64,000 bases of DNA from an uncultured Candidatus Saccharibacteria bacterium (lineage in GTDB: Bacteria > Patescibacteriota > Dojkabacteria > JAOAGR01). Position 1 is the stretch's first letter, and each line of letters begins with the position of its first letter. The translations under genes and the position numbers were made by a program. The DNA lies in assembly GCA_964503755.1 (NCBI GenBank), contig CAZDBO010000001.1:200926-264925 (forward strand). The letters run 5' to 3'. The notes below the pieces were generated by a model. That model was not told where the DNA came from, did not search any database, and was given only the letters and a program-made list of their open reading frames with translations. Below, piece by piece: positions 2,401-24,508 of this stretch.

Positions 2401-3638
2401 CTGAATATTTTTTTAATTTCTTTTAATGCATTAATAAATATATCTATTTCTTCTATAGTATTGTAGAAACATAAAGACACTCTTGCAACAGAATTGACTT
2501 TTAGCTCATGCATTATTATTTGTGTACAATTATGACCTGTTCGTATTGCAATGCCATGATTATCTAGTATTGTTCCAACATCATGAGAATGTACGCCATT
2601 AATATTAAATGAAAATATTGCTAAACGATTTTTATTTCTTTTGGGACCATATATTGTCAAATTATCAAGATTTAACAATCTTTCTAGCATATATTCACTT
2701 AATTTTTCTTCGTAAGATTTGATATTATGTAATCCTACAGATTGGATAAATTTTATAGACGCATCGAATGCTATTACATCAGCAATATTTGGAGTACCAG
2801 CTTCGAATTTGTTTGGAATATCAGCATATGTTGTATTTTCCCTTGTTACGGTTTTAATCATATCGCCACCGCCAAGAAAAGGGGACATTTTTTCTAATAC
2901 GGATTTTTTTCCAATAATTATGCCTACCCCCATTGGGCCTAAACATTTGTGAGCGGAGAATGTGAAAAAGTCCGGATTAATCTGTGATAGATTAATTTCA
3001 AAATGTCCACATGCTTGTGCACCGTCTATTACGATTAATGTTTTGGGGTTTTTATTTCGGATTTTTTTGATGATAGATTCAACATCATTAATTGACCCAA
3101 ATGTATTTGATACAAAACAGAATGAAACTATTACTGTTTTATCATCTATTTTAGATATCAAATCATCTATATCTATATATCCCTCTTCATCAAATCTGCA
3201 AAATCTAATTCCAAATTTTTTAGATTTTTGTACAAGTTGCCATGGTACTACGTTGGAGTGATGTTCTAAGTCGGTTAGTATGATATTGTGATCATCTGTT
3301 AGTTTTTCAGATATTCCATAGGCTATTAAATTTAGACTTTCGGTGTCGTTTTTGGTAAATACAACTTCATACTCATCTGATGCACTCCAAAAATTTTTTA
3401 TAGTGTTTCGGACATTTTCATACTTTTCAGTTGCTTCTTGGGATAAAGTATGCACACCTCTATGAATATTTGCATTATATTTTTCATAATATTCAACTAG
3501 AGTATCTATCATTACTTTGGGCTTTTGAGTAGTTGCGGCATTATCAAAATATATTAATCTCTTTCCATTTACTTTACGTTTTAATATTGGAAACTGTTTA
3601 CGAATATTTACTACATCAAACATGTTATGATTATACAA
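2397..3638 (-). CDS. sufS: cysteine desulfurase (SufS/Csd, class V aminotransferase)
   Basis: 413 aa with ...FDNAATTQKP..., the PLP-lysine context ...FSAHKCLGPMGVGII... and RTGHNCTQ near the C-terminus. Confidence 0.82.
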   Translation of the reverse strand: MYNHNMFDVVNIRKQFPILKRKVNGKRLIYFDNAATTQKPKVMIDTLVEYYEKYNANIHRGVHTLSQEATEKYENVRNTIKNFWSASDEYEVVFTKNDTESLNLIAYGISEKLTDDHNIILTDLEHHSNVVPWQLVQKSKKFGIRFCRFDEEGYIDIDDLISKIDDKTVIVSFCFVSNTFGSINDVESIIKKIRNKNPKTLIVIDGAQACGHFEINLSQINPDFFTFSAHKCLGPMGVGIIIGKKSVLEKMSPFLGGGDMIKTVTRENTTYADIPNKFEAGTPNIADVIAFDASIKFIQSVGLHNIKSYEEKLSEYMLERLLNLDNLTIYGPKRNKNRLAIFSFNINGVHSHDVGTILDNHGIAIRTGHNCTQIIMHELKVNSVARVSLCFYNTIEEIDIFINALKEIKKIFR

Positions 3639-3643
3639 CGATT

Positions 3644-4423
3644 ATGCGAGGAAATATAAAGGCATTGTTAATTTTTCTAAAGAAACAAAATATTGACTTT
3701 GTACAGCATGATGAAAATTTTATTGAAGTAAATTATAAAAATCAAAAACTATTTTTTATAAATTGTCGTGTCCCTTTTAATGATCATGCAAAATCAACCT
3801 TGTTTACCGATAAATATTTTACATATACATTACTCAAGGATAATCTAAAAATGCCGAAAACTTATTTTTACTTAGATCCTTTTGTTGAAAAGAAGTTTGA
3901 TAGATATAGAAAATTTTTAACTTATGATGAAATTTCTTCTGATGTCAAATCTAAATTTTCACTACCCTTTGTAATAAAACCAAATAGATTATCAAGGAAA
4001 AAAAATTTTTTTCTTATAGATGATCCGAAAAAGTTAGAGTTTGCTATTAAGCAAATTTTTAACCATAAAAGTGAAAATTATGATTATGGATTGATCTGTC
4101 AGGAATATATAAATATCAAAGATGAATATCGAGTTATTGTAGTTGCTAACGAAATCAAACTTATCTATAAAAAATGGAAATTTATTAAGATAACAGATAT
4201 TAATATGATATTTGATATTCAAAAGTTTGCTGAAAACATTGTAAAAACAGTGCAATTAGACTTTGTTGGTATCGATTTAGCATATGATATAAATGGAAAT
4301 CTTTTTTTAATCGAAATAAATAGTGCGCCTGATTTCACCCCATACATTAAACATAATTGTATTGACGATATTGTAGATATATACTCTTTTGCCTTTGAAA
4401 AATTCGTCTTCTATTTTACCTGA
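3644..4423 (+). CDS. ATP-grasp family ligase (RimK/alpha-L-glutamate ligase-like)
   Basis: Contains ...YRVIVVANEIKLIYKK...VGIDLAYDINGNLFLIEINSAPDF..., an ATP-grasp C-terminal signature. The start is set at ATG 3644 to avoid the 5' antisense overlap with sufS. Confidence 0.55.
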   Translation: MRGNIKALLIFLKKQNIDFVQHDENFIEVNYKNQKLFFINCRVPFNDHAKSTLFTDKYFTYTLLKDNLKMPKTYFYLDPFVEKKFDRYRKFLTYDEISSDVKSKFSLPFVIKPNRLSRKKNFFLIDDPKKLEFAIKQIFNHKSENYDYGLICQEYINIKDEYRVIVVANEIKLIYKKWKFIKITDINMIFDIQKFAENIVKTVQLDFVGIDLAYDINGNLFLIEINSAPDFTPYIKHNCIDDIVDIYSFAFEKFVFYFT

Positions 4424-5393
4424 TTGCTTTGTCTAATATTGGTTTTATGCCAATTTCATAATCTTGATTACCAACAATTTCGGCTAGAAGATTATAAGTT
4501 TTAGTTTGGCTGGTTTTCCCATCTAAGGTCTTTATAGTTACTTCTTTTACTTCATAAAGATAAAAGGTAGGTGTACCGGTAGTGCCTAATATATCACTGC
4601 TGAATTGTGATATTTTTCTCACATGCTCCTCGTATTGTCCCGAATTTATACATGATTCAAATTTATTTACATCTAACGACTTTGTAGCTTTTATACTATT
4701 AAAATATTCTTTCGCTTTATTTATATCGAATGGAGAAAAATTTTTATAATAGATAGTTTTTAGCTCAAAAAAAGCTTTTGGATCCTGCTCTCCAGCACAA
4801 TATAAAGATGAATGTTTTCTTATATCGCCTAACCCTTGTTTGTCAACAAAAATGTAGGTTAGTTTACCAGTTAACAAAAAATCACGCGATAATTTTTCAA
4901 AACTTGAATCTTTGTTTTGTTGATATCCATGAAACTTTGCACAGTTTATACAATCTAAGTCACTAATCTCAACGAATATATATTTTGCGTTTACATTATA
5001 AGTAAGTATCGGTTGGTTTTCTAGGACGCTATTGCTAGATTCATAGTTTTTGGGCGTCTTAAACGAATAAAATGCATATTTTGGTAATACATAAATTAAA
5101 TTTTTATATATAACATCATGCAAGTTGAAAGCAAAAATAAATGTAATAGAGACAATCAAACTGCTGATAATTATACTTAAAGATGCTATTAGGTTAAAGT
5201 TATACTTTATTTTTTTTAGTTTGTTTTCAAGCCATGGAAATTTTAGATCAAAATTCTGGAATCTCAGAAGAAGATTGTGTATCTGTGATGGAATTTGTTT
5301 GATTTGAGCTAGTATCGATCTCTTCATGATATAAATCTTTTCTATTATATACTGTTTTAAGAAGTGTTTCATTAAAAGGTTGGGGGAGCACAA
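4416..5393 (-). CDS. membrane-anchored DsbA-like thiol:disulfide oxidoreductase (thioredoxin fold)
   Basis: One N-terminal TM helix plus ...VEISDLDCINCAKFHGYQ..., a CxxC in DsbA-like context. The true start is probably downstream of 5393 (ATG at 5327 or a non-ATG start near 5250), because the 5' part overlaps another ORF. Confidence 0.5.
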   Translation of the reverse strand: MCSPNLLMKHFLKQYIIEKIYIMKRSILAQIKQIPSQIHNLLLRFQNFDLKFPWLENKLKKIKYNFNLIASLSIIISSLIVSITFIFAFNLHDVIYKNLIYVLPKYAFYSFKTPKNYESSNSVLENQPILTYNVNAKYIFVEISDLDCINCAKFHGYQQNKDSSFEKLSRDFLLTGKLTYIFVDKQGLGDIRKHSSLYCAGEQDPKAFFELKTIYYKNFSPFDINKAKEYFNSIKATKSLDVNKFESCINSGQYEEHVRKISQFSSDILGTTGTPTFYLYEVKEVTIKTLDGKTSQTKTYNLLAEIVGNQDYEIGIKPILDKAIR

Positions 5394-5529
5394 TATTTGT
5401 TTGTTCTATTAGTTTTGGATCAACTTCAAATTTACTAGACTGATGAAAAAATTCAGCTACTATCCAAATAACTAAGCCGACGATTATTATAGCTAAAAAT
5501 ATCGATATTCTAAGGGAGTTAAGTTGCAT
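5248..5529 (-). CDS. small single-pass membrane protein (hypothetical)
   Basis: 93 aa with an N-terminal TM helix and a Ser/Thr-rich tail. It overlaps the 5' end of the DsbA-like ORF in another frame, so it is uncertain. Confidence 0.3.
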   Translation of the reverse strand: MQLNSLRISIFLAIIIVGLVIWIVAEFFHQSSKFEVDPKLIEQTNIVLPQPFNETLLKTVYNRKDLYHEEIDTSSNQTNSITDTQSSSEIPEF

Positions 5530-5687
5530 AAGATCATACTATCAATTATTTTTTTATATTACAAGATTAGTGAGTTTTTATCTTATGGCACTGGCGATGA
5601 TATTTAACATAAAAGCTAAGGTCAAAACTCCTATTAAGATAAATAAAAATAAGAAAGCGATTTTTATTGTATTGTTATTCATAAAAT

Positions 5688-6968
5688 TTACATTTTTATT
5701 ATCATTCCTCTTTGTTTTGTAGGGGTAGTATAAAATTCTATTTCCGAATTTTCAAATTTTTTGGCTAAATCTATCTCTAAATCTAAAACTTGCATTTTAT
5801 TTGTATTACGTGAGTTGATATATAAAGCATTATTGATTATTAATCTAAAAATACGCCCGTTTTTATTTTTCATTCCGGAAAGACAAAAACAGTAAACAAA
5901 ATTCGGGTTACTAAAATTAATAATGGATTGATTTTTTATACCTTCAAAGGTTAAATTATTAAAATGTATAAATTCGACAGTAGGAGTGTTAATGCCAAAT
6001 TTAAGATAATTTTTGTTATCACCAAAAGGAATATTTAGTTTGCCAAACTTTATGATATATTGCTTTTCTGCAACTGTACCATATGATGTAAATCTGTAAG
6101 ATCCGGGTTGTTGTTTTAGTTGTGGATCATAAGCAATACTTGTCCTGCCAAACAGTTTTTTCTTTTCTAAAAAATCTTGCACTTTGTAAATCGATTTTTC
6201 TAACAGAATCCTTTCGGATGAGAAATTTGATAAGAAAAACTCTGTTAGTATCTCCTCTGTTGCTTGAAGTCCAAATACTATATATCGATCCTGCAAATTT
6301 AGTGTTTTCACCTCTTTAGATTTTTTATACAAATCATAATAGTTTCCAATAAATGATAAAAGTTCACTAATTTCCTTTAGAGATGGTAGATAAGATATTG
6401 TATAACTCCAATTTATTATTTGGGGTATAACTATTTTTAAATCAAATTTTGTATATATAAATTCTTCAGTTATGCCACGAGAACTATATAAATATTTAGT
6501 TCCATCTACAACTTCTAAATTATAATCTATACCTACATTTAGTATTTTGGCTGTTTCTTCTATGAGTTTTATTATTTTGAATAAATATTCTGGTTCATAA
6601 ATTGAGTTTGATAATTGTCTATCATTACATATAACAAGAGGATAAAGATTTTTCGATGGTATAAATATCTTTTCGTTATTTTCTAGTGTCAATCTGTTTT
6701 CGTAGGCTGTTTCTATCCATTCATCAATTTTATTTAAATATGTATGATCTACTTCTCCTTCGGAATATTCATGTTCAGGCCATACAATCGTATAAAACCC
6801 CCTTGAATTTTCTTCTATTTCTATTGGATTGTTTAAATGGTGATTTTTATCAATTTTATTATCGAATTGGACTTTATAATATTCGTCATTATAAAGCACA
6901 TAATCAACAATCTGCTTTTTAGAAAGTAGATTCTGTAATTTCTGCGCAAGTTTTTCTGTTAAGTTCAT
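5688..6968 (-). CDS. hypothetical protein (third gene of the PEP-utilising-like operon)
   Basis: 426-aa ORF with a 4-nt ATGA overlap to the upstream gene. No recognisable motif. Confidence 0.5.
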   Translation of the reverse strand: MNLTEKLAQKLQNLLSKKQIVDYVLYNDEYYKVQFDNKIDKNHHLNNPIEIEENSRGFYTIVWPEHEYSEGEVDHTYLNKIDEWIETAYENRLTLENNEKIFIPSKNLYPLVICNDRQLSNSIYEPEYLFKIIKLIEETAKILNVGIDYNLEVVDGTKYLYSSRGITEEFIYTKFDLKIVIPQIINWSYTISYLPSLKEISELLSFIGNYYDLYKKSKEVKTLNLQDRYIVFGLQATEEILTEFFLSNFSSERILLEKSIYKVQDFLEKKKLFGRTSIAYDPQLKQQPGSYRFTSYGTVAEKQYIIKFGKLNIPFGDNKNYLKFGINTPTVEFIHFNNLTFEGIKNQSIINFSNPNFVYCFCLSGMKNKNGRIFRLIINNALYINSRNTNKMQVLDLEIDLAKKFENSEIEFYTTPTKQRGMIIKM

Positions 6969-8026
6969 ATAAGCTTAGCTTTATTCTTTGATACAACAAA
7001 TAATGTAAATTTGTTATCTACAAACATTGATTTTGGAGCTGATTTTAGTATCACGAAATCACGATTTATTGTTTCGATTTGTTCGCCATCAAAAAAAAAT
7101 ACTTCATCTAACATCAGAGTATTGTTTTTTTCTAAATCCCTTGACTCAGATGATATACAAAAAAGTACAGGTGTCTTAATTGAAATTTTATTACATATTT
7201 GATTTAGGTAATCTTTATTGTAAAGGAAATAGGGGCTTTTGAGTTGCTTTAAATTTATAAGTACTTGATCACTTATATTGTCTATATCATAGAATTTTTG
7301 TGAGTCACTAAATATAAGTACTATATAATTATTTACATTTTTTAATGTTGATTTTTTCTTGTTTTTTTGTTTTTTGGGGATATCAATATAAGATAAATGA
7401 GTCTCCAAAGTATATGTCTTATTTTTGATTAAATCAGTATCAATATAGATATTTTTTTTACTAATTAAATTTGAATCTTGATAGATAAAAATTTCTAAAT
7501 ATACGTATGAATTATTGCTTGCCGATACTTGTTTTGAAGATTTTGTAAAATATTGACATAGATTATTCTCGACTACTAATTTATATTCGATGTTGATATT
7601 AGAGTATTTATCTTTAGTGTGATCTATACTTTCAATTAATATCTCTTTTAAATATTCAAAGTCAGATTTATTTATACTTTGATTATTTTGAGACTGTTCT
7701 TCTATATTTATGTAAATATTATTTATATAAACTTGTGATGATTTTTTATAAAATTGATAAATATTTTCACTATATGAATAGAGTCTTTGGGACAAATCTG
7801 CAAGATGTGTTTTGTCTGATTTACCGTTTAGAACAAGGTCTTTATAAACTTTGGTGAGACATATTCGTTCTTTTGTTTTGTGATAAGATCTTATTATGCG
7901 TTTATTTATAGTGTGTAAAGTAAAATTTTCTATTGATTCTACCTTAATGTAAATTTGCTTCTTTTGATTTGATTTAGAACAGGTTTTAATTATGTGAGGC
8001 TTGTGATTGTCATATTGATATATCAT
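6965..8026 (-). CDS. hypothetical Asn/Lys-rich protein (second gene of the operon)
   Basis: 353-aa ORF, same strand, tightly linked to both flanking genes. Confidence 0.5.
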   Translation of the reverse strand: MIYQYDNHKPHIIKTCSKSNQKKQIYIKVESIENFTLHTINKRIIRSYHKTKERICLTKVYKDLVLNGKSDKTHLADLSQRLYSYSENIYQFYKKSSQVYINNIYINIEEQSQNNQSINKSDFEYLKEILIESIDHTKDKYSNINIEYKLVVENNLCQYFTKSSKQVSASNNSYVYLEIFIYQDSNLISKKNIYIDTDLIKNKTYTLETHLSYIDIPKKQKNKKKSTLKNVNNYIVLIFSDSQKFYDIDNISDQVLINLKQLKSPYFLYNKDYLNQICNKISIKTPVLFCISSESRDLEKNNTLMLDEVFFFDGEQIETINRDFVILKSAPKSMFVDNKFTLFVVSKNKAKLI

Positions 8027-8124
8027 GATTTATACAATTTTTAATCATGAGATTATACATTGAAAATACGTATATCATCAATGCGATATAGTAATGAAAA
8101 ATGTGTTATAAAAATAGTATTTAT

Positions 8125-11019
8125 TTATAATCTTTTGCTTAATTCTCTCTGTTCTAGTTCGCGTAGAATTGTCTTAACAGTATCGCAATTATCCATGCGA
8201 CAGGCTATATGAGTGAAATTATTATTGAAAATATACTCAGCAACTTCACTCGGTTTTTCAAATCCACTTATATCAATTATAGAATTATCTTTTAAACTAT
8301 CTCGCTGTGATAAATATTTAACAAGATTTCTCATACCTTCTACAAATTTAGTTGACGCAGTAAGTTTTTCTACACCAAGCATGTTCATCTTCAACCTGAA
8401 TAGATCATAATAGCGTCCGTCAACAAGAATATTGTCCATAATTTCTTCTAAACGAAAAACGTTGATCATGCGCGATACATTGGCATAGATAAAAAATGTA
8501 GAAGATCTTTTTAATCCAACTTTATTTAATAATTGTTTGGTCTGAACTATATCCTTTTTATTACGATAATCCGGTAAAATAAGCGAAAGATTCTTAAATT
8601 TAGACCTAATATTGTTGTGTATTTGCACTAAAAAGTTAAGCATAACTTGACTTTCGTATGGGGGGCATATAACTAGTACTTTTTTTTCTAAACCTATTAT
8701 TTGTAAATTCTGTAAAAGTAAATTTATGCCTACAGGCATATCTTGGGTAAAAGAAAAAATCGCGCCATCATAATTAGCTAGAGAACGATCGACAACTTCG
8801 TCTATCAGATGAACATATACTTTTGATATTGTAGGCACAAAGTCCAGATATTTTTTATGTCTTTTAGGAGTATTAATTTCATGTATATATGATTCTTCTA
8901 TGTCAAAATTAAATTCTTTACTTTCATTTGATATCTTATTAAGCTCGTAATTTATAGAATCAATGGATGTTGTTGCCTGTTGTGGATTTACTTCACTACT
9001 GGTTCTAACGAGCTTTTGCAAACTATTGGCCCATAGTTTTGTTTGATCAGATTCACTGATTCCTTGTACTACATCTAAATTATTATTTTCTACTACTGTT
9101 TTTTTTTCATCTTCTGTTACATAATTTAATATACTTTCTAGTATACTTTGTTTATCTTCTTTATTTGTTTCTGCTATATAAATAGAGCTCTCAGAAATAT
9201 CTGATTTAACATCCGCCTGAATTATATATTCTTTTTTTGGTTCGACTGGTATAGATAAAGATTCGCCTTCTATACCTTCATGTGTTTGTCGTTCTAATTG
9301 TATTGTAAGGTCAATTTGCGTATTAGGTTCTGTTATTTCAAATGTTTCTTGTGATAAAGAATTTTCATTTGTAACTTTATTTATGTTATCAGTCTTAAGT
9401 CCTTCCGTACTGTTCGATATACTTGATATTTCAATATTATTTGTTGCATTCGGGTCAGAAACGTATATTCCTCCTGTTTGAGGATCAATTCTTATTGGTT
9501 CACCTTCTTTTAATAGTCTATTTGCCAAAGGTGCACCAGTAATAATTGGTATTTTAAAATGTTCATAAAGCCTTATTGCCAATATCTCTGATGGTTCTAC
9601 TATTATAAATCCTCTAACTTTAAGATCAGCTCTAATATCCTCGAAACCTTCAAGGATAAGAATACTATCTTCGCTTGGAGATTCATAATTAAAAGTAGCC
9701 TTTCCCACAACTACTGAATCTCCCCTATAATATCGTCCTTCAATCAAAGGACGTTGTTTAAATATTACATTGTTGTCCATATGATCATAGATTACATTTT
9801 TTTGAAATTCTTTTCTAGTGTTGTTTTCAACAGTAATATTTTCTGCTTTATTTATATAGTTTGATGATAAATTTTCATTTAAATTTGTCGCCACGTCTTG
9901 ATCATCTGTAATGGGCTTAAATATTTGTTGGGGTAATTCAGTTTGTTCAAAATGAATAATAAAACTATTTTGATTTACTTGATCTAAAAATTGATTATGT
10001 TTTGCGCTTAGGGTAATATCTTCTATTTGCTGTGTATCTGATAATTTATCGTCTTCTTGATAATTAATCTCGATTTGTTCTGAGTTTTTATTGTCTCTAA
10101 CTTCGATTTGTTCTGCAGTTTTTTCAGGTATTGCGTTATTAATTTCTATTTCTGTTTCATCTATTTCTGTATCAAATATGATATCCTCAGTACTTTTTTT
10201 AGGTACATAATCTATTTGATTAATGTAATAAATCCATATTTTGCCATTATCTAGCATCCAGTGTATTTCATAATCTCTATGAAGTTCTTCTGAGATGATT
10301 TTTATAGTTTTGGTTAGTGATTTAATATGTTTGTCGTCTATTTTTTGTTTCTTTTGCCAAGCAACAGAAACTTCTATCTGCTTGTATGGTAATGCATCAT
10401 GTCCTCGAATATACATGAATTTTTGTTCTGCAATATGTTTCTCGAGTATTTTTTCTGTATTTTTATTTACGATATAAGTGTCATATTCAATATTTAGATT
10501 GTTAACTGGTATTCCATAAGCAGCCTCGATAAGTATTGTTTCATCAGAATTGTTTAATACATTCTTGGAAAAAGCATATCCAAAAGAATCACAGTTATTT
10601 GATTTTAGTATCAGTATGTTAACTATACTATTTGAATATTGTTTCAAAACATTTGTCTGCATCTCATTAATAACATCTTCTATTGAAAAGATTATCTTTT
10701 GTATACCTTTTACTTGATATGCACATAAATCTTTTATAATCTGATTATTATCATTAGATTTAATAAAAACGAAGATATTGACATATGATTCGGTTAATCC
10801 AGATATTGATTCATATTGGTCAATTATTTCTTTGGAAATTGAGTCTCTAATATGTGAATCAGTAGAATTGCTTGCTAATTTTGTTACTCCACTATGACTT
10901 ATTATAAATCCATTTGGTATAGGTAGTAATTCTTTATATAGATCTGATAATAAAACTGTTAAATCAGTAAAATCTTGGCCTGCTTTGATTTTTTCTTGTA
11001 GACTATATACGTGCTTCAT
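8125..11019 (-). CDS. large PEP-utilising enzyme (PEP synthase/PPDK)-like multidomain protein, probably non-canonical
   Basis: 964 aa. The N-terminus resembles the PPDK/PEPS nucleotide-binding domain (PIPNGFIISHSG...). The central segment resembles the PEP-utilisers mobile domain (...RGFIIVEPSEILAIRLYEHFKIPIITGAPLANRLLKEGEPIRIDPQTGGIYV) but has no His at the phospho-carrier position. The C-terminal roughly 240 aa are TIM-barrel-like. Long E/N/Q/I-rich low-complexity linkers separate the domains. Confidence 0.5.
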   Translation of the reverse strand: MKHVYSLQEKIKAGQDFTDLTVLLSDLYKELLPIPNGFIISHSGVTKLASNSTDSHIRDSISKEIIDQYESISGLTESYVNIFVFIKSNDNNQIIKDLCAYQVKGIQKIIFSIEDVINEMQTNVLKQYSNSIVNILILKSNNCDSFGYAFSKNVLNNSDETILIEAAYGIPVNNLNIEYDTYIVNKNTEKILEKHIAEQKFMYIRGHDALPYKQIEVSVAWQKKQKIDDKHIKSLTKTIKIISEELHRDYEIHWMLDNGKIWIYYINQIDYVPKKSTEDIIFDTEIDETEIEINNAIPEKTAEQIEVRDNKNSEQIEINYQEDDKLSDTQQIEDITLSAKHNQFLDQVNQNSFIIHFEQTELPQQIFKPITDDQDVATNLNENLSSNYINKAENITVENNTRKEFQKNVIYDHMDNNVIFKQRPLIEGRYYRGDSVVVGKATFNYESPSEDSILILEGFEDIRADLKVRGFIIVEPSEILAIRLYEHFKIPIITGAPLANRLLKEGEPIRIDPQTGGIYVSDPNATNNIEISSISNSTEGLKTDNINKVTNENSLSQETFEITEPNTQIDLTIQLERQTHEGIEGESLSIPVEPKKEYIIQADVKSDISESSIYIAETNKEDKQSILESILNYVTEDEKKTVVENNNLDVVQGISESDQTKLWANSLQKLVRTSSEVNPQQATTSIDSINYELNKISNESKEFNFDIEESYIHEINTPKRHKKYLDFVPTISKVYVHLIDEVVDRSLANYDGAIFSFTQDMPVGINLLLQNLQIIGLEKKVLVICPPYESQVMLNFLVQIHNNIRSKFKNLSLILPDYRNKKDIVQTKQLLNKVGLKRSSTFFIYANVSRMINVFRLEEIMDNILVDGRYYDLFRLKMNMLGVEKLTASTKFVEGMRNLVKYLSQRDSLKDNSIIDISGFEKPSEVAEYIFNNNFTHIACRMDNCDTVKTILRELEQRELSKRL

Positions 11020-11078: not shown

Positions 11079-13559
11079 TTGCTAAAAATGATTGGCTGTA
11101 CTACAATATTGATAGCTATGGAAAATTATTTTAGTAACAGTGCCAAACAAGTTTTACAAGAAGCCGCACAATTAGCGGTTGAACGTGGTACAACTTATAT
11201 AGACACGGAGCATCTTTTGTATGCTGCTATACAAACGGAAATAAATAGAAAGATATTAGAAGAGATCAATAAAAATCCAGAGACCATTATTGAATATCTG
11301 GATAACAACATGCCTACATTTTCTAGGAGATTTTATGGAACTATTGCCGCTGATTTGACGCCACGTGCAAAACAAACATTAAATTTAGCTTTTGAATTTG
11401 CAAGGGAATTTGGGCATGGATATGTAGGTGTGGAACACGTTCTTTTAGGGATTTTAGAAGAAGGTGAAGGATTTGGGGCACAAGTTTTAAGAAGGTTTGG
11501 AGTAACAGTTGAAGATTTAAAAAAAGCCATAAAAAAAGTACTTGGTGAGGGTAGCAAACAGACTACAAAATCTGATACTCCTACTTTAGATAAATACTGT
11601 CGTGATGTTACAAAGCTTGCAAGAGAAGGAAAGATTGATCCAGTTATTGGGCGTAAAAATGAGATCGAAAGAGTAACTCAGATTCTTTCACGACGAAGAA
11701 AAAATAATCCTGTTTTGATTGGAGAACCAGGGGTTGGAAAAACTGCAATCGTAGAAGGATTGGCATTGAAAATCGTTCAGGGAAACGTTCCAGATGTATT
11801 GCAGGATAAGCGCGTTCTTGCTTTGGATATGGGAATGCTTATCGCTGGCACAAAATATCAAGGTGAGTTTGAAGAAAGGGTTACTAAAATTATCAAAGAG
11901 TTGCAATCATCTGGCGGAAATATAATTCTTTTCTTGGATGAATTGCACACTATTGTTGGGGCTGGAGCTGCTGAAGGCAAAACTGATTTGTCCAATTTGC
12001 TAAAACCCGCATTAGCAAGAGGAGAGTTACAAGCTATTGGTGCGACTACGCTTATAGAATACAAGAAATATATAGAAAAGGATCCAGCTCTTGAGAGGAG
12101 ATTTCAGCCAGTACTTGTTTTAGAGCCATCAATAGAAGATGCTATACAGATATTGAAAGGATTAAGAGATAAATATGAAGCACATCATAAAATACAGATT
12201 TCTGATGAAGCAATAGAAGCAGCTGTCAATCTGAGTGTTAAGTATATTAGTGACAGATTTTTGCCTGACAAAGCACTAGATGTGCTCGATGAATCTGCAT
12301 CAATGTTGAGGTTAAAAGCTATAAATGAACCAGAACCTATCAGAAACATAAAGCAGAAAATAACTGATTTGGAAAGAGAAAGAGAAGCTCTAACTCGTTC
12401 AAGAGAATACGAAAAAGCAGCATTAATAAAGCAAGAGGTAGAAAAGCTTAAAACAGAGCTACAACCATTAGAAGAAGAGTGGCTAAAAACTAGAGGTACT
12501 GGTACTCCGGTTTTAGGTGTAAATGAAATAGCCGAGGTTATTTCGAATATGACAGGTATTCCTGCAAATAAAATAAACAAGCAGGAAAAAGAAATACTGG
12601 CTAATCTTGAACAACTCTTACATAAAAGGGTTGTAGGACAAGAAAGAGCAGTAAATGCAGTTGCAAACGCGGTACGCAGATCGAGACTAGGTCTAAGTGA
12701 TGAAAAAAGGCCCATAGCTTCATTCTTATTTGTTGGACCAACAGGAGTGGGAAAAACTGAATTGGCAAAAGCCTTGGCTGAGAATTTATTTGGACATGAG
12801 TCAAATTTAATACGTATAGACATGAGTGAGTACATGGAGAAACATTCTGTTGCTCGTCTAATAGGAGCACCTCCAGGATATGTTGGGTATGAAGAAGGCG
12901 GACAGCTAACAGAAAGAGTTCGACGTAAGCCATATTCAGTTATATTATTAGACGAGATAGAAAAAGCTCATCCTGATGTCGCTAACATATTTTTACAAAT
13001 ATTAGAAGATGGACGTTTGACAGATGGACATGGTCGTACAGTTAATTTTAGAAATACAATAATTATTGCTACCTCAAATGTAGCATCTAACCAAATTTTT
13101 GAATATTACGAGAAGCAAAGAGATAATATAGCAGAAAAACCAGAAAGTAGTATTTTAAAATTCAAAGAGGATGAAGGAAAGAAGGATATAGAAACTGTAG
13201 TAATCAATGCGCTCAAAAGTGTTTTCAGGATAGAGTTAATCAACAGATTTGATGGTATCATTGTTTTCGAACCACTTAGCCGAGATATAATTCAGCAAAT
13301 AGTCAGATTGCATCTGACTATATTGGTAGAAAAATTAGAAAGAAATGAAATTAAATTATCTTATTCAGATGAAGTAGTCGAATACATAGCAAATAAAAGT
13401 TATAATCCTCGCTTTGGAGCTCGAGAGGTACGTAGATTTGTACAAAAACATGTTGAATATCTTATTTCAAATTATTTGATAAGTAGAGATTCAAATATTA
13501 GTCAGAACATTAGGCTTGTTTTAGAGGATGAAAAAATAAATATAGTTGAAGATTGTTAA
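11079..13559 (+). CDS. clpC: ATP-dependent Clp ATPase, ClpC/ClpB family (two AAA+ modules)
   Basis: Clp N-domain repeats, Walker [16 protein letters not shown] and [15 protein letters not shown], and a short coiled-coil middle domain typical of ClpC. The start is either 11079 or ATG 11118 (MENYFSN...). Confidence 0.85.
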
Positions 13560-24431: not shown

Positions 24432-24508
24432 GAGCCATTAGCTCAGTTGGTTAGAGCACGGTGCTTATAACGCCGGGGTCGCTGGTTCAAATCCAGCATG
24501 GCTCACCA
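24432..24508 (+). tRNA. tRNA-Ile with anticodon TAT (UAU); body resembles tRNA-Ile2
   Basis: Acceptor GAGCCAT/ATGGCTC, D-arm TAGCTCAGTTGGTTAGAGC, anticodon stem CGGTG/CGCCG with loop CTTATAA, T-arm GCTGGTTCAAATCCAGC, then CCA. Confidence 0.75.

Follow-up and report, generated by a model that had tools for sequence, protein, structure and literature searches.

The stretch of DNA analysed here, called the window in the following, comprises 64,000 nucleotides (nt) of contig CAZDBO010000001.1 (positions 200,926 to 264,925, forward strand) from an uncultured Candidatus Saccharibacteria bacterium placed among the Dojkabacteria by GTDB. Its region 5688-11019 carries three open reading frames (ORFs) on the minus strand, encoding proteins of 964, 353 and 426 amino acids (aa), which are named P1, P2 and P3. 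All three are present as described in an earlier sequence-only reading of this DNA, which had also pointed to the ATGA overlap of 4 nt at the last junction (P2/P3, ...CTT ATA TGA / ATG AAC...). The ORF listing shows no plus-strand ORF of at least 80 aa inside the region. The G+C content is about 29% over the whole window with no compositional break at the three genes, scans for repeats, terminators, Rfam families and tRNAs found nothing within them, and PADLOC gave no defence-system match for P1, P2 or P3. As set out below, P1 is a homologue of phosphoenolpyruvate (PEP) synthase that has lost the residues needed for phosphotransfer, and P3 a TldE-like protein without a metal site.

P1, a PEP-synthase homologue with altered catalytic residues

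The N-terminus of P1 matches the Pfam family PPDK_N (PF01326) with an E value of 2e-14 (53.9 bits, cut-off 27), and its orthologues do so with E values of 1e-27 to 1e-29. A profile built from the P1 family only found the PEP synthase 8a8e in the Protein Data Bank (PDB) with an E value of 2.6e-37; the sequence-only reading had staked its proposal on such similarity to PEP-utilising enzymes, and it was found in both searches. The matches of P1 are collinear with two multimeric archaeal PEP synthases, 8a8e of Pyrococcus furiosus and 9dae of Staphylothermus marinus, which match P1 in all three domains and in their arrangement along the chain. In the PDB search with the family-only profile, the stretches corresponding to the swivel domain and the barrel were likewise collinear, but individually weak and not significant. 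They became significant when P0006 was added to the profile (e.g., barrel versus 9dae, 2.4e-4). P0006 (locus L007, 8001-10493, 830 aa), from another candidate-phyla metagenome-assembled genome (MAG), is the nearest outgroup of P1 and displays all three Pfam domains. The family-only swivel profile matched its residues 425-504 with an E value of 3e-5, which is exactly its PEP-utilizers domain (PF00391, Pfam E value 3.6e-17), and the family-only barrel profile matched its C-terminal domain with an E value of 5e-10. Direct Pfam matches of the swivel domain in P1 orthologues stayed below the threshold (E values of 0.05-0.08). Because the profile without P0006 is not significant in these two stretches, the assignment of swivel and barrel rests on this bridge and on the structure match.

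The latter was obtained with an AlphaFold2 (AF2) model of residues 623-964, which folds into a (beta/alpha)8 barrel with a predicted local distance difference test score (pLDDT) of 80-93 from about residue 730 onwards, made up of eight beta/alpha units and a terminal helix of 22 residues. When this model was compared with 350,542 PDB chains using Foldseek, the top two matches were the PEP-binding domains of PEP synthases (9dae_A, E value 8e-9; 8a8e_A, E value 3e-8), followed by HpcH/HpaI aldolases, which are likewise triosephosphate isomerase (TIM) barrels. The long helix after the P1 barrel aligns with the C-terminal helix of 9dae. Judged from these comparisons, P1 is a true PEP-synthase (PpsA) homologue with three domains in the order ATP-grasp, swivel and PEP-binding TIM barrel. 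The domain order typical of PEP-utilising enzymes and the phosphotransfer scaffold of PEP synthase and pyruvate phosphate dikinase (PPDK), both proposed for P1 earlier, are thus borne out by Pfam, the P0006 bridge, the profile matches in the PDB and the Foldseek search.

Instead of the short swivel linkers of PEP synthases, P1 carries linkers of about 130-155 residues (Table 1). Its low-complexity stretches (residues 271-424 and 521-720) add up to 354 aa and are rich in E, N, I, S and Q. The roughly 350 residues of low-complexity linker noted before were therefore correct in amount, divided over two linkers; residues 651-729, however, are not plain linker, because they are conserved within the family and predicted by AF2 to be helical, at low pLDDT.

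Table 1. Coordinates of the features of the P1-P2-P3 locus in the window.
Feature	Position	Strand	Basis or remark
P1 gene including stop	8125..11019	-	ORF, 964 aa
P1 residues 1-270, ATP-grasp (PPDK_N) domain	10210..11019	-	Pfam, PDB profile
P1 residues 271-424, linker 1, acidic, E/N/D/Q/I-rich	9748..10209	-	no invariant position across the family
P1 residues 425-520, swivel (PEP-utilizers mobile) domain	9460..9747	-	PpsA alignment, P0006 bridge
P1 residues 521-650, linker 2, S/E/N/T/I-rich	9070..9459	-	3 of 130 positions invariant
P1 residues 651-729, family-conserved segment before the barrel	8833..9069	-	17 invariant positions
P1 residues 730-964, PEP-binding-type TIM barrel and long C-terminal helix	8128..8832	-	AF2, Foldseek
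P1-P2 intergenic gap, 98 nt	8027..8124	-	sigma-70-like match, no terminator-like site
P2 gene	6965..8026	-	ORF, 353 aa
P3 gene	5688..6968	-	ORF, 426 aa
Possible accessory ORF, 34 aa, single-pass membrane	5578..5682	-	similarly placed counterparts in sister loci
Element TTAGCA-N15-TGCYAA	11059..11085	.	clpC/P1 divergent intergenic region

The catalytic positions of P1 were read from an alignment with E. coli PpsA, and for the ATP-grasp and barrel residues we take the roles to be those known from studies on PPDK and PpsA. In the ATP-grasp domain, P1 lacks the GGK motif as well as the Gln and Arg of VQARP, the Arg of RSS is a Phe and DIEW is changed to EIHW. Sister lineages retain only a GK and the Arg at the RSS position, and the Mg ligands of this domain are replaced in all P1 lineages. 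The GGRTCH loop of the swivel domain (GGxT(S/C)H) is deleted; at the position of His421 of E. coli PpsA, the window lineage has Pro and the sister lineages have Glu, and the family alignment revealed no conserved His in the swivel domain, no member having a His at the place of the loop. In the barrel, VRLSDF reads VHLIDE (the PEP-binding Arg being His or Gln in the family), CEIPS reads NVSRM (Mg-binding Glu to Ser), SNDMTQ reads LFRLKM (Mg-binding Asp to Arg) and ICGQ reads ISGF (catalytic Cys to Ser). Because the phospho-carrier His is gone and the catalytic residues for Mg, PEP and ATP are replaced, P1, as aligned here, cannot be a metabolic PEP synthase. This agrees with the sequence-only reading, which had noticed the absence of GGK and of the catalytic His and had argued against a metabolic PEP synthase. 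A further difference from the archaeal enzymes concerns the iron-coordinating Met of the P. furiosus tetramer, which is not evident in P1.

In place of the lost residues, the mouth of the P1 barrel has invariant motifs of its own, namely DE, PPYE, LPDYRNKK, SR.INVFR and LFRLKMNMLGV.K.TAST. According to the AF2 model and the family alignment, they come directly after the predicted strands b1 and b3-b6; in TIM barrels, the active site is usually located on the face formed by the C-terminal strand ends. The invariant barrel residues include D740, E741, Y788, E789, D817-K822, S849, R850, N853, R856 and D872-N879. When seven sequences with an overall identity of about 35% were compared, 34-35% of the positions in swivel and barrel proved invariant (35% in the swivel), and none in linker 1. 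The label 'degenerate' given to P1 earlier does not do justice to the conserved family-specific residues at the barrel mouth; in its sequence, P1 looks rewired, not decaying. In locus L008, the P1 orthologue is split in linker 1 into two ORFs overlapping by 4 nt (3726-6631), one encoding the ATP-grasp domain (377 aa) and the other the swivel plus barrel (591 aa). This is either a natural gene fission or an assembly frameshift, and the separation of ATP-grasp from swivel and barrel fits modules that do not need covalent swivel coupling.

Two other groups of proteins share parts of this architecture. Rifampicin phosphotransferases and the prodigiosin ligase PigC have a PPDK_N ATP-grasp and a swivel-type domain in common with P1; the structures 5hv1 and 5fbs of the rifampicin-phosphotransferase type match its ATP-grasp domain, and the NCBIfam model of PigC gives a weak partial match (E value 4e-12, 45 bits versus a cut-off of 1300). 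In contrast to P1, these enzymes need the phospho-His that P1 has lost, and they have something other than a PEP-binding barrel as third domain. The second is the outgroup P0006, which has TSE in place of the catalytic TSH; it differs from P1 by a largely intact ATP-grasp signature, short linkers and the absence of TldE-like neighbours. Given P0006, His-less relatives of PEP synthase may reach beyond the P1 clade.

The partner proteins P2 and P3 and selection on the three genes

The sequence-only reading had considered both partners to be free of motifs, which holds for P2, but not for P3. The latter matches the Pfam family PmbA_TldD_3rd (PF19289) with an E value of 1e-7 (31.7 bits versus a cut-off of 22), as do all ten members of its family examined (best E value 2.6e-13), and the family profile finds the PmbA-type protein 1vpb in the PDB with an E value of 1e-4. 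At the position of the HExxxH motif of TldD, the P3 family reads x-E-Q-x-x-x and thus has no zinc motif. The N-terminal Pfam domains of TldE were not detected in P3; of the C-terminal domain, its first half is all that can be recognised. In the TldD/E protease, HExxxH and Cys454 are found in TldD alone, whereas TldE lacks both, shows no activity by itself and assembles into hollow dimers (Ghilarov et al. 2017, PMC5810440). P3, having a PmbA_TldD_3rd match without HExxxH, is therefore classified by its sequence as TldE-like, with no metal site. It resembles TldE (PmbA; peptidase family U62; PDB 1vpb, 1vl4, 3tv9, 5njc-type), which is the non-catalytic half of the heterodimeric metalloprotease TldD/E, also in being encoded beside, and translationally coupled to, another protein (about 440 aa in size); a paired occurrence is common for members of the TldD/E family.

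For this second protein, P2, no match was found in Pfam, NCBIfam, PDB or PADLOC, and a HMMER search with its profile against 1.84 billion representatives returned only its own cluster. At the P2 position, the sister loci carry proteins of 422-461 aa, which are positional orthologues. A hidden Markov model built from them ranked P2 best among the 183 ORFs of the window (E value 8e-5), mainly via the first 100 residues; compared with these longer proteins, P2 of the window clade is shorter by about 90 central residues. P2 is a fast-evolving orphan, a shortened version of its positional orthologues. When profiles of P2 and of the long orthologues were compared with PDB, Pfam, P3 and the E. coli proteins TldD and TldE, no significant match emerged. 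Neither HExxxH nor any His or Cys is conserved in the P2 family. P2 differs from TldD in having neither detectable similarity to it nor the zinc motif, and for this reason a canonical active TldD/E protease cannot be built from P2 and P3.

All three genes are under purifying selection, in line with the lineage-specific module that had been suspected. When compared with the orthologues of locus L009, the ratio of nonsynonymous to synonymous substitution rates (dN/dS) was 0.16 for the whole of P1, 0.14 for P2 and 0.08 for P3, and 0.14 for the comparison gene SufS, all of these and the following values being approximate as dS is about 1 and near saturation. Within P1, the ATP-grasp domain and the barrel showed 0.08 and the swivel 0.13, while the linkers reached 0.27-0.30, with 0.30 for linker 1. 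These data bear on the idea that the three ORFs are decaying relics, i.e., pseudogenes in the making. Catalytic residues have indeed been lost in P1 and P3, the window lineage has a shortened P2 and L008 a divided P1; the ORFs, however, are long and intact in every lineage, their dN/dS is as low as that of SufS and of the neighbouring gene for a DsbA-like protein, and a third of the barrel and swivel positions has stayed invariant at the low overall identity given above. Decay is therefore regarded as extremely unlikely.

Distribution, gene neighbourhood and the clpC/P1 intergenic region

Among 5.8 billion clustered proteins, P1 has five relatives and one outgroup, P3 has eight relatives and P2 has three. 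When 185,579 species genomes were scanned by pattern, three genomes with the gene set were uncovered, and a scan of JGI metagenomes yielded two further loci; the nearest named relative is a Candidatus Dojkabacteria MAG. Identical proteins are encoded on an NCBI contig of 313 kb. P1, P2 and P3 are confined to a handful of Dojkabacteria-like genomes of the candidate phyla radiation (Patescibacteria), and the lineage restriction claimed by the sequence-only reading was confirmed in this respect. In all loci, the surroundings share an extended synteny that includes ClpC, GatB, a DsbA-like protein, HrcA and MutS, with P1 always divergent to clpC. Downstream of P3 follow a small membrane ORF and the genes for two further proteins, of which one is a membrane protein with about 90 aa and the other is DsbA-like and membrane-anchored. 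The locus L015 is truncated on its upstream side.

The description of the three genes as a tightly linked operon has to be divided. It applies to P2 and P3, whose overlap is 4 nt in every locus with both ORF boundaries readable (six lineages). P1 and P2, on the other hand, are separated by 98 nt containing the promoter-like sequence TTGATG-18-TATAAT at 8081-8052, with 10 of 12 positions matching. Conservation of the triad as a unit in related genomes, proposed earlier as a check, was found in six of the seven resolvable lineages (the window clade, to which L009 belongs; L003; L004; L008; L016; and one JGI contig), where P1, P2 and P3 are direct neighbours with unchanged order and strand. The triad is not an obligatory unit, as in the remaining lineage (L001/L005) a distance of about 6.7 kb separates the P2-P3 pair from P1, which is still divergent to clpC. 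The main rival to a common module starts from here: the genes would be two independent neighbours and not a triad, P1 belonging to the divergent clpC promoter region and P2-P3 forming a TldE-type unit apart from it, driven by a promoter of its own. The split arrangement and the promoter-like site in front of P2 fit this, the adjacency may merely mirror close relatedness in view of the extended synteny of all loci, and P0006 demonstrates that the nearest outgroup of P1 does without a TldE-like neighbour. Against it, adjacency, order and strand were kept in the six lineages although the proteins are only about 30-36% identical, the terminator scan found no terminator-like site in the 98-nt gap, and all three families were found only in the same few genomes and metagenome contigs of Dojkabacteria-like type. 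On balance, independent neighbours appear somewhat unlikely to us.

The intergenic region between clpC and P1 contains the element TTAGCA-N15-TGCYAA, which is present in one copy per locus, always between these two genes, in seven lineages (L001 at 7856, L003 at 823, L004 at 3037, L008 at 3621, L009 at 3879 and L016 at 4583, apart from the window). In the window, it forms the palindrome TTAGCAGAC-N9-GATTGCTAA, which deviates at three positions from the inverted repeat CIRCE (controlling inverted repeat of chaperone expression; TTAGCACTC-N9-GAGTGCTAA), with 0.01 such matches expected by chance. A heat-shock or proteostasis regulon was therefore considered, in which P1 (and P2-P3) would be regulated, together with clpC, from a common HrcA/CIRCE operator and would serve ClpC as adaptors or holdases. 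Besides the palindrome itself, the retention of its core in seven lineages and the presence of hrcA nearby in sister loci speak for such a regulon. However, only the outer arms of 6 nt are conserved and the sister loci show at least four mismatches to CIRCE; read towards clpC, the element makes an equally good -35/extended -10 promoter (TTGGCA-N15-TGC-TAAAAT), which would account for its conservation without HrcA; in the sister loci, another conserved block that resembles a promoter stands between the element and P1; and there is no hrcA in the window. We consider this regulon clearly improbable, and the candidate CIRCE operator was downgraded, since only the outer hexamers are kept across the seven lineages and the sequence can also be read as a clpC promoter. 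The element would be a clpC promoter and/or a CIRCE-like operator. The listed TTG start of clpC (11079) falls inside it, and an ATG at 11118 is the more likely start.

On the other side of the locus, an ORF of 34 aa (MNNNTIKIAFLFLFILIGVLTLAFMLNIIASAIR) begins 5 nt past the stop codon of P3, and small ORFs of similar sequence (...IVG..TA.W.W...) occur at the corresponding spot in L003, L004 and L008. Whether this predicted membrane peptide is part of the module is uncertain. It is followed at 4416-5529 on the minus strand by genes for a membrane protein of 93 aa and a membrane-anchored DsbA-like thioredoxin (Pfam Thioredoxin_4, with a CxxC motif), which are syntenic in most sister loci. L004 encodes after its P3 orthologue an extra membrane protein of 446 aa (9526-10866) with an HExxH motif and weak Peptidase_M9/M78-like matches.

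Possible roles of the three proteins and further features of the window

We tentatively favour, with a probability of about 0.45, the reading that the locus is a lineage-specific module made from two known scaffolds whose ancestral chemistry was lost while their structure was kept, P1 acting as a binding scaffold and P2-P3 as a metal-free pair of the TldE type. In its descent from PEP synthase, P1 has lost the His loop, exchanged the catalytic residues of ATP-grasp and barrel and turned the short swivel linkers into acidic, poorly conserved tethers. With the His loop and catalytic residues lost and the linkers expanded, His-mediated phosphotransfer between two active sites of P1 is impossible. 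At the barrel mouth, P1 has acquired a set of charged and polar residues that is strictly conserved, and the protein would work as a scaffold that binds a ligand or a partner. In the PPSA of P. furiosus, oligomerisation is driven by an alpha-helical motif of the C-terminal domain (bioRxiv 10.1101/2022.08.11.503304). By analogy with PEP synthases, P1 probably oligomerises through its barrel, with the other modules loosely tethered. P2 would be the obligatorily co-translated, fast-evolving partner of P3, and the two may form a closed two-subunit shell comparable to TldD/E and TldE dimers; as HExxxH occurs in neither protein, such a shell would bind or hold peptides without thermolysin-like cleavage. 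That P1 works together with P2-P3, physically or functionally, is suggested by the adjacency of their genes.

Several observations weigh against this reading, in addition to the promoter-like site before P2, the separate location of P2-P3 in L001/L005 and the near-saturated dS mentioned above. P2 may be a paralogue at the TldD position, as its gene position, size and 4-nt coupling suggest; comparison by hhalign with P3 and with TldD and TldE of E. coli, however, gave a probability below 1%, and the AF2 model of P2, made from three close sequences, was unusable (pLDDT 38). Nucleotide binding may persist in the P1 of sister lineages, given the GK and Arg retained in their sequences. The conserved residues at the barrel mouth, finally, could equally mark a new catalytic site.

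This last point leads to a module that is still enzymatic, with a new activity at the barrel mouth of P1, possibly some residual nucleotide binding by the ATP-grasp domain, and P2-P3 as a non-canonical peptidase, so that a peptide such as the product of the downstream small ORF would be modified or processed as in pathways for peptides made by ribosomes and modified after translation (RiPPs). The barrel strands bear invariant motifs of charged and polar residues at their C-terminal ends, which would suit a catalytic site, several lineages have a conserved small ORF immediately following P3, TldD/E is known to cleave leader peptides (PMC5810440) and the additional HExxH protein in L004 could be seen in the same light. 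P1, however, has no phospho-carrier His and its ATP-grasp Mg ligands are replaced in all lineages, P2 and P3 both lack HExxxH as well as conserved His or Cys, the product of the small ORF has the appearance of an ordinary membrane peptide with a single pass and a poorly conserved sequence, and no other RiPP-type enzyme was found near the three genes. An enzymatic module is improbable in our view. The barrel-mouth motifs provide a concrete candidate site for a new ligand or activity.

Going further than the favoured scaffold module, one may imagine that the two scaffolds have been made into one three-protein machine, either non-catalytic or newly catalytic, consisting of an oligomeric barrel hub, a tethered ATP-grasp and swivel and a metal-free TldE-type cage, which would handle peptides or proteins with ClpC or carry out new small-molecule chemistry at the barrel mouth. 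This picture is speculative and, taken as a whole, rather improbable.

Candidate-phyla bacteria have genomes of about one megabase and have discarded most of their metabolism. Here, about 5.3 kb are kept under purifying selection for a PEP-synthase derivative without phosphotransfer and a metal-free TldE-like pair. One source labels a P1 orthologue (P0004) as 'phosphoenolpyruvate synthase/pyruvate phosphate dikinase' and P3 orthologues as 'predicted Zn-dependent protease'; such names, of the kind that automatic annotation is likely to assign, would wrongly credit the organisms with gluconeogenic PEP synthesis and a zinc protease. With its His loop deleted, its linkers expanded and its gene split in one lineage, P1 is a natural example of a dismantled swivelling three-domain phosphotransferase. 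Searches of the searchable literature turned up neither a His-less PEP-synthase derivative nor an association of PEP synthase with TldE (TldD/E). The narrow distribution limits the impact of these findings, as does a functional role that is deduced from sequence and gene context.

Two further features of the window were recorded. An ATP-grasp protein of the RimK/R2K type (296 aa) is encoded on the plus strand at 3533-4423, between the DsbA-like gene and SufS. ARAGORN called a tRNA-Ile with the anticodon UAU at 24432-24508 on the plus strand; in most bacteria, AUA is decoded by a lysidine-modified CAU tRNA.

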